Positions 45,402-49,579 of a stretch of 64,000 nucleotides of DNA are shown piece after piece. The notes beneath the pieces were generated by a model. That model ran no database searches. It was given only the letters and a program-made list of their open reading frames with translations, and had not been told where the DNA came from. Each line of letters begins with the position of its first letter. Position 1 is the stretch's first letter. The position numbers and the translations under genes were made by a program. The DNA lies in contig JAFXPG010000014.1 in the NCBI GenBank assembly GCA_017528045.1, forward strand, positions 2,252 to 66,251. Direction: 5' to 3'. This DNA is from Alphaproteobacteria bacterium (GTDB lineage: Bacteria; Pseudomonadota; Alphaproteobacteria; Rs-D84).

Positions 45402-46331
45402 ATGAAAAATATATTTGCGTTTTCATTGGTGTTGATTTCGGCTTTTAATGCCTATGGGGCAGAAGTGCTTGATTTAAATACTGCGCTTCAAAACACATAC
45501 AAAGCCTGCGTAGATATAGACGATAATTTACATGAATTAAAGGTTTTAGCAGGTGTTAATACTGCTGTGACTGCGGTTGGAACAGGGTTAGGTGTTGGGG
45601 CGGCTGCTACTGGTTTTGCAAAGGCGGATAAAGATACAAAAGCTAAGAAATTAGCAGATAAACTGAATTACAATAAACAAACTGTAAATGTCATGCCTAG
45701 TGATGAAGAAATGAATGCTTTTGCAGAAGCTTTTAAATCAAGTGCTGATATTGAAAAAGAATTTGATAAGTTACGTAAACAATCCAAGACATTAGGAAAT
45801 TGGCGAACAGGGTTATTAGCCGGAAATACAGCAACAAATGTGGCCGGGGCTATTATTTCTAGTCGGACAATTAACAAGGACAATATCAAAGGACAAATAG
45901 AATCTTGTGTGTCTGCAACGCAAGCGTTAAATGCAGCAATTACTGCGGCTAAATTAAATGGCGAATATATCGATGAAGCACAAAATATTTACAATGCGTG
46001 TCGTGAATATGAGTTTATAGATGTTTCTGCGATAAATAAACGTGGAACTGGTGCAATGATATCTGCTTCTATCGGTGCGGGACTTGGGGGTATTGGAACA
46101 ATAACCAGTGGTGTTGCGAATAGTGAATCTGTAAGAAAAGATAAATTGGATGTATCAGAAAAAACAGATGCAGATTGGGATAAAGAAAAGAATTTAAATA
46201 CTGCCGCAAATGTGTTATCGGTTGGTGCAACAGCAGCATCGGCCACAGCAACAATATTTAATGCAACACAAATAGCGGCAATAAAGAAAGTTGCAAAAGT
46301 ATCTGAATCTTGTACAGGAGCATTAAAATGA
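45402..46331 (+). CDS. Secreted Gly/Ala/Thr-rich Cys4 protein (cassette partner, paralogue 2 of 2)
   Basis: Signal peptide MKNIFAFSLVLISAFNAYGA. Shares all conserved blocks and the four Cys with 5241-6206. Confidence 0.75.
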   Translation: MKNIFAFSLVLISAFNAYGAEVLDLNTALQNTYKACVDIDDNLHELKVLAGVNTAVTAVGTGLGVGAAATGFAKADKDTKAKKLADKLNYNKQTVNVMPSDEEMNAFAEAFKSSADIEKEFDKLRKQSKTLGNWRTGLLAGNTATNVAGAIISSRTINKDNIKGQIESCVSATQALNAAITAAKLNGEYIDEAQNIYNACREYEFIDVSAINKRGTGAMISASIGAGLGGIGTITSGVANSESVRKDKLDVSEKTDADWDKEKNLNTAANVLSVGATAASATATIFNATQIAAIKKVAKVSESCTGALK

Positions 46332-49300
46332 AAAAGTTTTTATTCATGATCATTTTATGTGTTTCTGGTTTAAATGCATTTGGTGATGATTTTGTAAAAA
46401 AATCTACTCGTGCAGAAGAAATATCTATTCCTCGTAATATATTTGAAAGTGTTTTACAGGAAGATTCTGAATTAAAGAATCATCAAGATTTAATACAAAA
46501 AATGATGAATAAATTTGATATTTATACTGGCATACACAATTTGGGTAAAATAGATATTGATGATATAGCACAAATTTGTTTGTTGGGTAATATTTCACGA
46601 AAAGATGATTGTTGGACACGTATATTAAATCCTGTACTTACAAAAATGAAAAAGGTAAGATTTGCTGATGTTTGTATTGGTGAAAATGTAGATATAACCG
46701 GTGGCGAAAGGCATTGTATTGACGATGTTTTTATTGTTAAAGCAGGTGGGAAAAATTTGTATCATCAAAATGTAAACGTTCCCGAATATACTGCATATGG
46801 TTTGGCATTAGAGTATGCAAAAAAGAAAGGACATGATGTTTGGTGCAAAGAAAACAAAGAACATAAAAATACTATAAGATGTTCTACATTAGATAATTCG
46901 CATTTTTACACTTTTAAATTCAATGGTACAAATAATACAGATGATGACACAATATTAGAAAATACCATCAAAGGTATATGTGCTTTGCAAGATGCAAAAT
47001 TTGTAGATAGTGGTTTTAAAAATATTACCGCAGATGGACATATGGGATTGAATATTAATTGGGAAGAAAAAGATGGTTGTATGACACAATGTGACGCAAG
47101 TTTATTAGATAAATTTGCTTTACATGGGAAAACAGAAAGAAGAAGTTTTAAATGGCTTGATAATAATTTGCATGATTTTTGTCCTGTGGATACATTACAT
47201 AAATTTGATGAAAATCTTTTATCAAAATATCCTGGCTATGAATATATGACAAATGCTTTTGAAAACATTCAATTTGTATTAGATAATAATTTAGTAAACA
47301 CAATTCGTACATATATTGAATTACAAGGAATAAAAGTTTCGTCTTTCACCTGTAAATACAGACCTGTACCATATCAATCTAATTCTTTATCTAATTATGG
47401 TCGTGCAATTGACAATGATGTTTTGATAACAGTTGGTACAGCTGTGGAAATGACCGGCGAACCAGATGATATTTTGATATGTGAATTGAATGGCAAGAAA
47501 GTTGATTTTGTATTTGATGATTTATATGAAAGTAAGAATTATGAACAAAAAGCCGGTAAAGCAGGTTTAGCGTGTGTGTTGGTTAATGGTACTTACGGTT
47601 CAGACAGAAATTGTCGTAATTTAACAAAATCGCAATGTTTAGAAGCCAGTTCAAAAATATCAGGTGGAACACGTTGGGATTCTGATTCTGAAGTGTGCGT
47701 TCTTAACTCTGTTGCAAATGTAAAAACAATCAATAATGTAATACAATTGTCAAGTGGTGTTGCTATAGCTGTTGGTGTTACTTTTTTAACTGGTGGTTCT
47801 GCAGCTATCGCAATCGTAGCAGCTGGCAGTGGTTTACTTTTAGATACCGCTTTTATTGGTATTGAAAAAATAAATGAATTAAGACCTGCACATCGTGCAC
47901 GTTCATTTGCCAAAGATGTTCAAAATTGTCAAATACCAGATGGCACAATATCTTGTTCAACCGCACAAAAAAATTGTGCAATAAAAGTGGTTAATGGTCA
48001 TTTTGCAGCATTGGAAGAAATATTCACAGATTTAAATGATGATCAAATGAATGTAATTGGTAATTTAATGGAAAACGTTACAAATTGTTTATCTGATGAA
48101 GAATATGAAATGGCTTTGCAGACTTCAACAACATATGCGACAGCTGCACTGAATGTTTTCAGTTGGGGTTTGTTAATAGGTGGCATGTTTTTCCATCCTG
48201 AATCAGCAGCTAATTTATCGCGTTTTCCGAAAGTAGCAAAAGTACTGGGGCGTTTACCAGGTGCAAGAATGACAACTCGTACTTTAAATGGTGTTGAACA
48301 TACAAGGCTTTTCTTAGATGGGGTCAGCGATGCCAGAATAAATAGAATAGTTAGTGATTTATTAAAAGATAATTATTTTATGTCAGGCAGTATCCAAGAT
48401 GGAAAGAAAGTTTTGGATATATCAAAACAAAATATTTTTAGTCGATGGGATAATGCTGTTGGTAATTGGTTACTGGATACAGATAACAAAATAGGTCATA
48501 TTTTATTAGGGGTTAACAAACGTGCAGAGGTAGGTAAATATACAATTGATTTTGGAAATGGGGTTAAACATAATTTTTATAAAATAATTATAAATGATAA
48601 TGATAATGTTGATGGAATAGTCAAAGCCCTTAAAGGAAACGGATATTTTATATCATCTGGTACCGAAGAAGGTGCAAAATATTTATACGTTGCAGACGAA
48701 GATGTTCTTAGCGGTTTTGATAATATACCAACAAATTGGTTAAAACAAGGAATACAAAATATAGATAATGTTTCAGAAGCTTTTTATGCGAAATTTCCTG
48801 GGTTCAAAAATTATGATGATTTCTTCAGAATTTCTAATAATGTTTTTCCAAAAATAGCTGCTGAAAAAATGGTTACACAAATAAGAAACGATGGAAGATT
48901 TTTTGCTAAAACAATGCCTATAGAAGGCATAGGTGGACAAAGTGAGCGTTATGTTATCGTTGCTATAAGTAAAGAAGATGCTGACAAGATAGGGATTGTT
49001 TGGAAAGGCAAAGATTTAGTTAGTGATGTAGATAATTCTGCTTTTTTAAGAAATATAGAGTTTTATAAGAATAATGAAATAACTAGGATTGGTAATACTT
49101 CAGCATATATAGAAGATGTTGGTTCTATAGACGGGAGAGCTATAGTAACAATCCGTATAGGAAATAGAAAAATACCTTTTTATGTTTCATCAGGACTTGC
49201 AGGTAAGACACAGGTCCCAACTGGTAAATGGGAGATTTTCTGGGGACTAGGTCCAGATGATGAATGGTTTAACAAAGGAAGTCTATCCGGAATAAATAGT

Positions 49301-49579
49301 CATTATGGTTCTCGTCAATTAGAATATATAGCACACGAATTAGATTCTAAATTAGGTGACCCTAGATCGATTGAATATGTATTGAGTACTGTTGGTCGAA
49401 AATCTAGACCAGATAATGCTGGTGGTTTTGTTGGTGTGGCAAATCTTGGATCTATAGATGCAAAGAGTATAAATTCAGGTTTTAAATATGCACCTAGAAA
49501 TTACGATGATTATGATGCTTTAGATGTGCTTCGGGCAAACCAAAAAGATATAATATATTATCTGGAAAACTTACGTTAG
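46328..49579 (+). CDS. Large (1083 aa) secreted/membrane multi-domain protein; payload gene of cassette copy 2
   Basis: ATG overlaps the upstream stop (ATGA at 46328-31). Signal peptide MKKFLFMIILCVSGLNAFG. Two hydrophobic G/A-rich segments lie at about 47745-47870 and 48133-48200. Three tandem ~85-aa repeats lie at about 48260-49000. The C-terminal domain is unrecognised. Confidence 0.75.
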   Translation: MKKFLFMIILCVSGLNAFGDDFVKKSTRAEEISIPRNIFESVLQEDSELKNHQDLIQKMMNKFDIYTGIHNLGKIDIDDIAQICLLGNISRKDDCWTRILNPVLTKMKKVRFADVCIGENVDITGGERHCIDDVFIVKAGGKNLYHQNVNVPEYTAYGLALEYAKKKGHDVWCKENKEHKNTIRCSTLDNSHFYTFKFNGTNNTDDDTILENTIKGICALQDAKFVDSGFKNITADGHMGLNINWEEKDGCMTQCDASLLDKFALHGKTERRSFKWLDNNLHDFCPVDTLHKFDENLLSKYPGYEYMTNAFENIQFVLDNNLVNTIRTYIELQGIKVSSFTCKYRPVPYQSNSLSNYGRAIDNDVLITVGTAVEMTGEPDDILICELNGKKVDFVFDDLYESKNYEQKAGKAGLACVLVNGTYGSDRNCRNLTKSQCLEASSKISGGTRWDSDSEVCVLNSVANVKTINNVIQLSSGVAIAVGVTFLTGGSAAIAIVAAGSGLLLDTAFIGIEKINELRPAHRARSFAKDVQNCQIPDGTISCSTAQKNCAIKVVNGHFAALEEIFTDLNDDQMNVIGNLMENVTNCLSDEEYEMALQTSTTYATAALNVFSWGLLIGGMFFHPESAANLSRFPKVAKVLGRLPGARMTTRTLNGVEHTRLFLDGVSDARINRIVSDLLKDNYFMSGSIQDGKKVLDISKQNIFSRWDNAVGNWLLDTDNKIGHILLGVNKRAEVGKYTIDFGNGVKHNFYKIIINDNDNVDGIVKALKGNGYFISSGTEEGAKYLYVADEDVLSGFDNIPTNWLKQGIQNIDNVSEAFYAKFPGFKNYDDFFRISNNVFPKIAAEKMVTQIRNDGRFFAKTMPIEGIGGQSERYVIVAISKEDADKIGIVWKGKDLVSDVDNSAFLRNIEFYKNNEITRIGNTSAYIEDVGSIDGRAIVTIRIGNRKIPFYVSSGLAGKTQVPTGKWEIFWGLGPDDEWFNKGSLSGINSHYGSRQLEYIAHELDSKLGDPRSIEYVLSTVGRKSRPDNAGGFVGVANLGSIDAKSINSGFKYAPRNYDDYDALDVLRANQKDIIYYLENLR

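Follow-up and report, generated by a model that had tools for sequence, protein, structure and literature searches.

Where does a 1083-residue protein act when it begins with a signal peptide, carries hydrophobic segments in its middle and ends in a domain that no library recognizes, and what is the function of the smaller protein encoded directly before it? These questions are raised by positions 45402-49579 of the window, i.e. the whole stretch of 64,000 nucleotides of contig JAFXPG010000014.1 (assembly GCA_017528045.1) that was analyzed, in which a gene that we term the partner is followed by a gene that we term the payload, the two together forming a cassette. The genome examined comprises 891 kb in 16 contigs with ∼31% G+C, and the window corresponds to C4:2252-66251; the names carried by the protein relatives are those of "Alphaproteobacteria bacterium" metagenome-assembled genomes and of Candidatus Enterousia. 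The order in question, Rs-D84, consists of abundant gut bacteria with genomes of <1 Mb and without most biosynthetic pathways, and its members have been proposed to be dependent on other cells or parasitic, their mode of interaction being not known (PMC12306168). Judged from sequence, the pair represents one of several copies of a lineage-specific system, whose plan is a partner gene with a tagged cargo encoded behind it. We tentatively favor the idea that the cargo encoded here is delivered to other cells.

A partner gene and a payload with an exchangeable rear half

The first-pass annotation had described this locus as a second cassette that couples a partner paralogue to a very large, modular payload with an unrecognized C-terminal domain, and that description has held up. 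Both open reading frames (ORFs) are open on the forward strand, and the payload ATG (46328) overlaps the partner stop codon (46329-46331) by 4 nt (ATGA), which suggests that the two genes are translationally coupled. The modular build of the payload is borne out by the family alignment and by replacement of the C-terminus among relatives. The parts to which we refer are as follows, with residue numbers (aa) counted in the payload.

45402-46331, +, partner, ORF of 309 aa
46328-49579, +, payload, ORF of 1083 aa from its ATG; the frame is open from 46310
46328-46384, +, signal peptide, aa 1-19, cleavage after AFG, from inspection of the translation and its hydrophobic peak
46385-46747, +, N-terminal tag, aa 20-140, from alignment with two other partner-linked cargos
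46748-47749, +, Cys-rich domain, aa 141-474, including the most widely conserved block, VDFVFDDLYE...GGTRWD
47750-47863, +, Gly/Ala-rich hydrophobic hairpin with a TGG turn, aa 475-512, from hydropathy and family alignment
47864-48136, +, helical linker with four conserved Cys, aa 513-603 (C534, C550 and C587 invariant, C543 nearly so)
48137-48193, +, second hydrophobic segment, aa 604-622, from hydropathy, with an identity break directly after it
48284-48481, +, linker repeat 1, aa 653-718, from repeat alignment
48554-48751, +, linker repeat 2, aa 743-808, from repeat alignment
48806-49015, +, degenerate repeat 3, aa 827-896, from alignment and model; always travels with the C-terminal core
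49016-49576, +, C-terminal core domain, aa 897-1083, from profile search, alignment and AlphaFold2 model

The payload family is small, with only 19 relatives among 5.8 billion clusters, and its 11 aligned members share a single plan: residues 1-∼640 are conserved, one to five linker repeats follow, and the C-termini differ. The closest relative, P0002, is 93% identical over aa 1-621, then ∼43% identical in the repeats, and ends in another C-terminal subtype; because identity breaks directly after the second hydrophobic segment, we read the break at aa 621 as a recombination breakpoint, which in the alignment is a signature like that of polymorphic toxins and effectors. The 11 relatives show at least five kinds of C-terminus: that of our query (pattern PFYVSSGxAGK...GKWE.FWG...WFNKG), a related WYPIAGIG subtype, an OspF/SpvC-like type (PF03536 on record, with only RamC_N at 0.014 in our own scan), a Kdo-kinase-like region with an HExxH motif, and two further types of no recognized kind; P0010 additionally carries a J domain (3.7e-8). 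In other words, the payload is, by alignment, polymorphic in architecture, with a conserved front module and an exchangeable rear half. The two first linker repeats are 25% identical and in register, and the third, though degenerate at 16% identity, still aligns in register and is modeled as a beta-alpha-beta-beta-alpha unit. Three tandem repeats with a degenerate third copy had been noted at the first reading, and these we recover, with units of ∼65 aa in place of the ∼85 aa then given. The payload as a whole matched nothing in Pfam (even at E <= 10), NCBIfam, PHROGs or PADLOC, and nothing in the PDB by sequence or profile search.

How widespread is this arrangement? Profile searches covered 121 genomes of the order. 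The partner profile was found in 84 of these (1-9 copies each), the N-terminal module of the payload in 42 (1-4 copies, in ORFs of 520-2559 aa, with aa 375-595 the best-conserved part) and the C-terminal domain in 25 (ORFs of 203-2559 aa). Comparison of coordinates places about 35 payload-module ORFs of ∼1000 aa directly after a partner gene, for example in G071:C14, G101:C21, G059:C16 and C22, G030:C1, G070:C3 and G109:C3, and three metagenome loci (L003, L005 and L006) show the same order. The payload gene is accessory and variable, not housekeeping. The opposite scenario, in which the large protein is a conserved single-copy envelope protein with an invariant C-terminus and no linkage to the partner family, fails on the patchy presence in 42 of 121 genomes, the replaced C-termini and the ∼35 partner-linked genes.

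Within the genome examined, the payload is a single-copy gene by tblastn, and the same method finds three more partner paralogues: at window positions 5241-6206 (40% identity, 1.5e-60), at C4:92-1048 and at C10:57275-58228. Behind every one of them stands a gene whose product bears a signal peptide. The tag, i.e. the first ∼140 residues of the payload, is common to a GH108-muramidase cargo (6214-7230) and a 477-aa cargo (C4:1048-2481), and alignment of the three cargos leaves D64, C84 and C95 invariant along with a shared IDDV motif. The fourth partner copy (C10:57272-58237, −; locus L009, G000:C10:52000-59800) heads a row of five signal-peptide proteins, among them three paralogous proteins of ∼292-301 aa that have a trypsin-like look and are without the shared N-terminal tag. 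FolD and a 1672-aa protein (26879-32753), considered as a first copy of the cassette, proved unrelated, and it was tblastn that returned the real paralogues. The 1672-aa ORF itself (27735-32753) has a short N-terminal Peptidase_M48 match (1.1e-7) and no assignment for the rest.

The partner belongs to a far larger family than the payload, with >1575 relatives matched at 54-75% identity and four conserved cysteines in the alignment (C36, C169, C200 and C304). By inspection it starts with a Sec-type signal peptide, MKNIFAFSLVLISAFNAYG, cleaved before AE, that has no lipobox cysteine, so the protein is not a lipoprotein. The AlphaFold2 model (predicted local distance difference test, pLDDT, 74) is all-helical with very long helices, and the sequence has a Gly/Ala/Ser/Thr-rich stretch in each of the four longest. 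The list of structural neighbors from Foldseek is headed by ClyA-family alpha-pore-forming toxins at non-significant values (E 0.07-0.8, template-modeling (TM) score 0.2-0.37). The partner had no match in Pfam, NCBIfam, PHROGs or PADLOC, or in the PDB by sequence and profile search. Two candidate relationships were set aside: the 294-aa gene upstream of P0010 is not a partner, and the N-terminus of the 1803-aa relative P0013, considered as a Rosetta-stone fusion of partner and payload, is not partner-like (BLASTP; hhalign probability 0.2%).

A C-terminal domain shared with signal-less and phage proteins

What does the payload carry at its tip? The first-pass annotation had marked a C-terminal module of ∼150 aa as unassignable. 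The domain searches since run on this region matched no library family, known toxin families included; the extent needed revision, as the conserved unit is repeat 3 plus a ∼190-aa core (827-1083). Specifically, no match was found in Pfam, NCBIfam, PHROGs or PADLOC, including the Pfam toxin families; profile and sequence searches of the PDB with the C-terminus gave nothing, as did a word-based homologue search with the C-terminus alone and a tblastn search of phage and plasmid collections with the core domain and one small homologue. A HMMER scan with residues 820-1083, in contrast to these, returned at least 406 clusters (50% identity), 177 of them at E <= 1e-10. The ∼90-residue center of the core (payload ∼930-1020) is present in signal-less proteins of 145-460 aa and is internal to proteins of 1500-5800 aa with LPD38, UvrD or RNase T domains; phrog_32390 is among the occurrences. 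One metagenomic protein, P0011 (738 aa), has two tandem modules of repeat 3 plus core after a different repeat of ∼55 aa, and is without the payload N-terminal half and without a signal peptide.

AlphaFold2 models the domain with high confidence from a 67-sequence alignment (pLDDT 94.2, predicted TM score 0.90). Searched with Foldseek, the model had no fold match in the PDB (best E 0.28, TM <= 0.17) and three significant matches in BFVD. Each of the three is a large protein of a phage: the first carries an LT_GEWL lysozyme domain, another is described as containing a crystallin motif, and the remaining one, from Cellulophaga phage phi14:2, is annotated as structural. The C-terminal domain family appears to be undescribed, with a predicted fold that has no PDB counterpart. 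Its nearly invariant residues are R937, P950-F-Y, S954, G956, G959-K960, W968, G973, W980, K983, Y993 and N1049, which point to a site for ligand binding or catalysis that includes a glycine-rich element like a phosphate loop, and the pattern of R, S-x-G-x-x-G-K, K, N and Y probably marks a domain that binds or modifies a phosphate- or nucleotide-bearing ligand. A Walker-type P-loop nucleoside triphosphatase was considered and rejected, because in the model the S-x-G-x-x-G-K loop leads to a coil and a strand and not to a helix. Kinship with PPDK or ATP-grasp enzymes, for which there was a weak PPDK_N match on P0011 and an adjacency to ppdK, was likewise rejected, with no PDB fold match and an hhalign probability against PPDK of 0.16%.

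That adjacency merits description. In two congeners, signal-less proteins of 457/458 aa consist of linker repeats of two kinds plus the payload C-terminal module, and their genes lie directly upstream of ppdK (L022:823-2196 in G032:C11 and L023:751-2127 in G081:C3); in G032 the gene is flanked by pta and ppdK and runs into the start of ppdK. The ppdK of the genome examined (C7:47943-49292, −) has no such repeat-plus-module neighbor. A regulatory link between the ppdK-adjacent homologue and PPDK is possible. Since congeners encode repeats and domain in proteins without a signal peptide, the module would be one that works in the bacterial cytoplasm, and since it is encoded between pta and ppdK without an immunity-like neighbor, it is probably not toxic to the cell that makes it.

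Proposed export and delivery, and the setting of the cassette

Of the features claimed at the first reading, the signal peptide is present by inspection (MKKFLFMIILCVSGLNAFG, cleaved before DD), the Cys-rich N-region is real, and both Gly/Ala-rich hydrophobic stretches are found, at 475-512 and 604-622. All 21 cysteines lie in residues 11-587, with none in the last 496 residues (588-1083), and 12 are invariant across the 11 aligned members; the Cys-rich domain is presumably extracytoplasmic. The first hydrophobic stretch reaches a Kyte-Doolittle 19-residue mean of 2.0 and is long enough for a helical hairpin, and the second has a mean of 1.5.

The reading that we favor, and that we would call a good possibility rather than a probability, is that the payload is a Sec-exported, partner-assisted effector that inserts in a target membrane and delivers its Cys-free C-terminus to the cytoplasm of another cell. 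In this mechanism the payload would be exported by Sec, and the helical partner in the periplasm would bind the tag and then escort its cargo, or present it, at the outer membrane or past it; the Cys-rich domain would then bind the target cell, the marginally hydrophobic Gly/Ala segments would insert in its membrane, the unfolded, disulfide-free C-terminal half would pass into its cytoplasm, and there the C-terminal domain may act on a phosphate- or nucleotide-bearing ligand. Delivery would explain why one partner and one tag serve soluble hydrolases and the payload alike, what makes the C-terminus polymorphic, and how the domain also comes to be in large, probably virion-borne, proteins of phages. 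It also fits a parasitic lifestyle. The genome encodes a secretin (G000:C10:34207-34707, within a 546-aa ORF) and a VirB4-type ATPase (G000:C6:7674-8249, within an 805-aa ORF) elsewhere, so outer-membrane routes exist; the type VI secretion system (T6SS) sheath gene, TssC, was not found in the genome.

Several observations weigh against delivery. No immunity gene lies downstream of the payload. The C-terminal domain occurs only once in the genome, by the A3 profile and tblastn, and no orphan cassettes of it were seen, other C-terminal types having not been searched. A partner gene is missing next to P0010 and next to the payload versions of 1700-2500 aa (P0013 type), the likeness of the partner to ClyA-family toxins is non-significant even at its best E of 0.07, and that the hydrophobic segments fall short of stop-transfer strength is an estimate calculated by hand. 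Finally, the predicted features that speak for export stop at the Sec signal peptide, and those that bear on topology would fit a resident inner-membrane protein equally well.

Could the payload simply stay in the inner membrane? As a resident protein, it would hold its Cys-rich N-domain and four-Cys loop in the periplasm, where they meet the partner, cross the membrane three times, and keep the repeats and a variable output in the cytoplasm, as a transmembrane sensor or a conflict module of the defence type that exchanges its effector end by recombination. The cysteines occur only in the N-terminal segments that would then face the periplasm; P0010 and P0012 have K/R residues where the hairpin turns, and the last hydrophobic segment is followed by a conserved K/R-rich stretch (P-K...R); repeats and C-terminal module have signal-less cytoplasmic homologues; and P0010 ends in a J domain, as an inner-membrane DjlA-like protein does. 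Such a protein would need no immunity gene, and none of the cassettes in the window, L003, L005 and L006 has a dedicated outer-membrane exporter encoded beside it. Yet the same partner and tag also serve soluble exported proteins without membrane segments, namely the GH108 muramidase and a Cys-rich secreted protein, the last hydrophobic segment is short and weak, and PADLOC gave no match. We consider residence in the membrane somewhat unlikely, while deserving of serious attention.

The surroundings of the cassette bear on two further explanations, and the features concerned are these.

44420-45019, +, serine recombinase (Resolvase, 7e-32), a neighbor only
45016-45252, −, Cro/C1-type helix-turn-helix (HTH) gene, likewise a neighbor only
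45362-45390, +, promoter-like site TTGTAA-17-TATAAT with an extended −10 TG, a 10/12 consensus match only and not evidence of function
49628-50506, −, rmuC, convergent, the conserved right flank of the cassette

The first explanation is that the payload is a classical antibacterial polymorphic toxin of the Maf, CDI or Rhs kind, directed at kin, with its immunity gene elsewhere or missed. A conserved N-terminus with a variable C-terminus and a sharp breakpoint would suit such a toxin, as would an accessory gene upstream, as in mafA-mafB (PMC4287609), and a multi-copy, patchy distribution. The search for an immunity ORF in homologous loci, which the first-pass annotation had called for, came back empty: between the payload stop (49579) and rmuC there are 48 bp, leaving no room for one, and the same convergent rmuC arrangement leaves none at L005. 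According to Jamet et al. 2015 (PMC4287609), it is by their immunity genes that polymorphic toxin systems are told apart from toxins directed at a host. With the immunity gene and orphan cassettes missing, with the domain also encoded in congeners, between pta and ppdK, in an ordinary protein of the cytoplasm, and with no Pfam toxin family matched, a kin-directed toxin is improbable. From the occurrence of the domain in signal-less bacterial and large phage proteins and the missing immunity gene we take it for an effector that manipulates a host or prey rather than a toxin that kills kin.

The second explanation is that the recombinase and HTH gene control the cassette by inversion or excision, the cassette itself being cargo of a tRNA-Asn island. 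Both neighbors do lie upstream of the partner as the first-pass annotation had stated, the recombinase ending 383 bp away; the 1803-aa relative P0013 has a recombinase of 69% identity 2.3 kb upstream of it, recombinases are found 2-3 kb from 1800-aa payload-type genes in L002, G050 and G062, and in G059:C2 and G058:C3 recombinase and partner are divergently adjacent. This family, however, is present in 88 of the 121 genomes at 1-4 copies each, mostly far from partner genes and only occasionally beside them, so that enrichment over chance looks weak. Nor were convincing inverted repeats found bracketing any segment near the recombinase, only short imperfect ones as AT-rich chance gives; the best is an imperfect 31-nt palindrome at 45260-45325, between the divergent HTH and partner genes, which could be an operator and is more likely that than a recombination site. 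The promoter-like site ends 11 nt before the partner ATG with no Shine-Dalgarno sequence visible, which suggests that the leader is very short or missing and the partner mRNA near-leaderless.

The comparison with L005, the locus of P0004, bears on the origin of the cassette. The gene order at L005 is AcrB, a 227-aa gene, HAD, a trypsin-like gene, partner, payload, rmuC(−), def, fmt, truA, comEC(−) and pyrG. The window has the same right flank (rmuC, def, fmt, truA, comEC, pyrG) and keeps the AcrB-HAD block at 21249-25590, with ∼20 kb between that block and the cassette, including the tRNA-Asn island and the recombinase/HTH segment. Because L005 has its cassette at the same right flank without the recombinase, the island was probably inserted beside an older cassette; going by gene order, the cassette has probably been at this site longer than the adjoining island. 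Accordingly, neither membership of the tRNA-Asn accessory tract nor recombinational control, both proposed at the first reading, is supported, and we regard the two together as very improbable. Mechanical prediction gives rmuC as an ORF at 49628-50776 (−) of 382 aa with a TTG start that overlaps def by 220 nt; its real start is probably the internal Met at ∼50506, giving 292 aa, the RmuC length in L005.

In other genomes the cassette stands elsewhere, beside cvpA in L003 and after a Lol/MacB-like operon in L006. This conserved operon, which in a sister lineage precedes the cassette (L006:609-6005 and L001:2859-7689), encodes a MacB/FtsX permease between proteins of 439 and 206 aa, then an ABC ATPase and two unassigned proteins of ∼240 aa. 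As a candidate part of the cassette it was rejected, being housekeeping: the permease is 77% identical to one on C16 of the genome examined, with no partner near, and since the operon is kept here away from the partner its adjacency to the cassette is incidental.

Comparison with known systems

A multi-copy conserved partner with swappable exported cargos is a concrete candidate for the interface of Rs-D84 with other cells. A bolder version of delivery can be stated, and we think it unlikely: in Candidatus Enterousia and its order, through a Sec-dependent route so far unknown, a helical Gly-zipper partner, possibly a pore former, would hand tagged cargos ranging from muramidases to membrane-translocating effectors to other cells, and the payload would inject a metabolic or nucleotide-handling domain, also found in large phage proteins, into a host bacterium. 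If true, the takeover of hosts by an obligate parasite and by phages would draw on one shared domain of new fold. Common to giant phage and polyvalent-type proteins, small phage-like proteins, ppdK-linked cytoplasmic proteins and the payloads, the domain family offers, with its conserved residues, a clear structural and biochemical target.

How do these proteins compare with what has been described? The partner, whose fold match to the ClyA family (SmhB, AhlB, HblL1, ClyA and MakA) is non-significant, is like these toxins in being secreted, in a size of ∼300-360 aa, in its very long helices and in hydrophobic or small-residue stretches; it differs in having no sequence similarity to these toxins and in having four small-residue stretches, whereas the toxins have one hydrophobic head. 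The C-terminal core recalls the polyvalent proteins of phages and conjugative elements (Iyer et al. 2017, PMC5512222), being found inside giant multidomain and phage proteins, and LPD38, UvrD and RNase T in giant proteins are polyvalent-protein features (PMC5512222). Unlike in polyvalent proteins, the domain is here the tip of a chromosomal, Sec-exported protein predicted to be membrane-associated, and no Pfam LPD family was matched.

T6SS effectors of the prePAAR/Tse6 type use Gly-zipper transmembrane helices to take their C-terminal toxin across the membrane of the target. The payload is similar in that Gly/Ala-rich membrane segments lie just upstream of the C-terminal domain proposed to be delivered. 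With polymorphic toxin systems more broadly (Zhang, Aravind et al. 2012, PMC3482391), it shares an N-terminal trafficking part, repeats, a recombining C-terminal domain and a sharp identity breakpoint. Among the hallmarks set out by Zhang et al. 2012, a conserved N-terminus and a variable C-terminus are found here, whereas a downstream immunity gene and orphan cassettes of this C-terminal domain are not. The cassette differs from these systems further in having no T6SS (no TssC), no PAAR, Rhs or CdiA repeats and no known toxin domain.

The nearest parallel is the MafA/MafB pair of Neisseria (PMC4287609). The differences are considerable: the payload has no sequence similarity to MafB and no DUF1020 (PF06255) match even at E <= 10, and its hydrophobic segments and linker repeats have no counterpart in MafB; the mafA product is an outer-membrane lipoprotein, which the partner is not, and unlike MafA the partner also serves non-polymorphic enzymes such as the GH108 muramidase; and the locus has no mafI-type immunity gene and no C-terminal cassettes. 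The likenesses lie in the plan. Both have a Sec signal, a lineage-restricted conserved N-domain and a variable C-terminus, both have an unrelated signal-peptide accessory gene directly upstream and several loci per genome, and for both the route across the outer membrane is unknown. Set beside these systems, partner and payload look like a route, so far undescribed, by which variable effector domains are brought into other cells.

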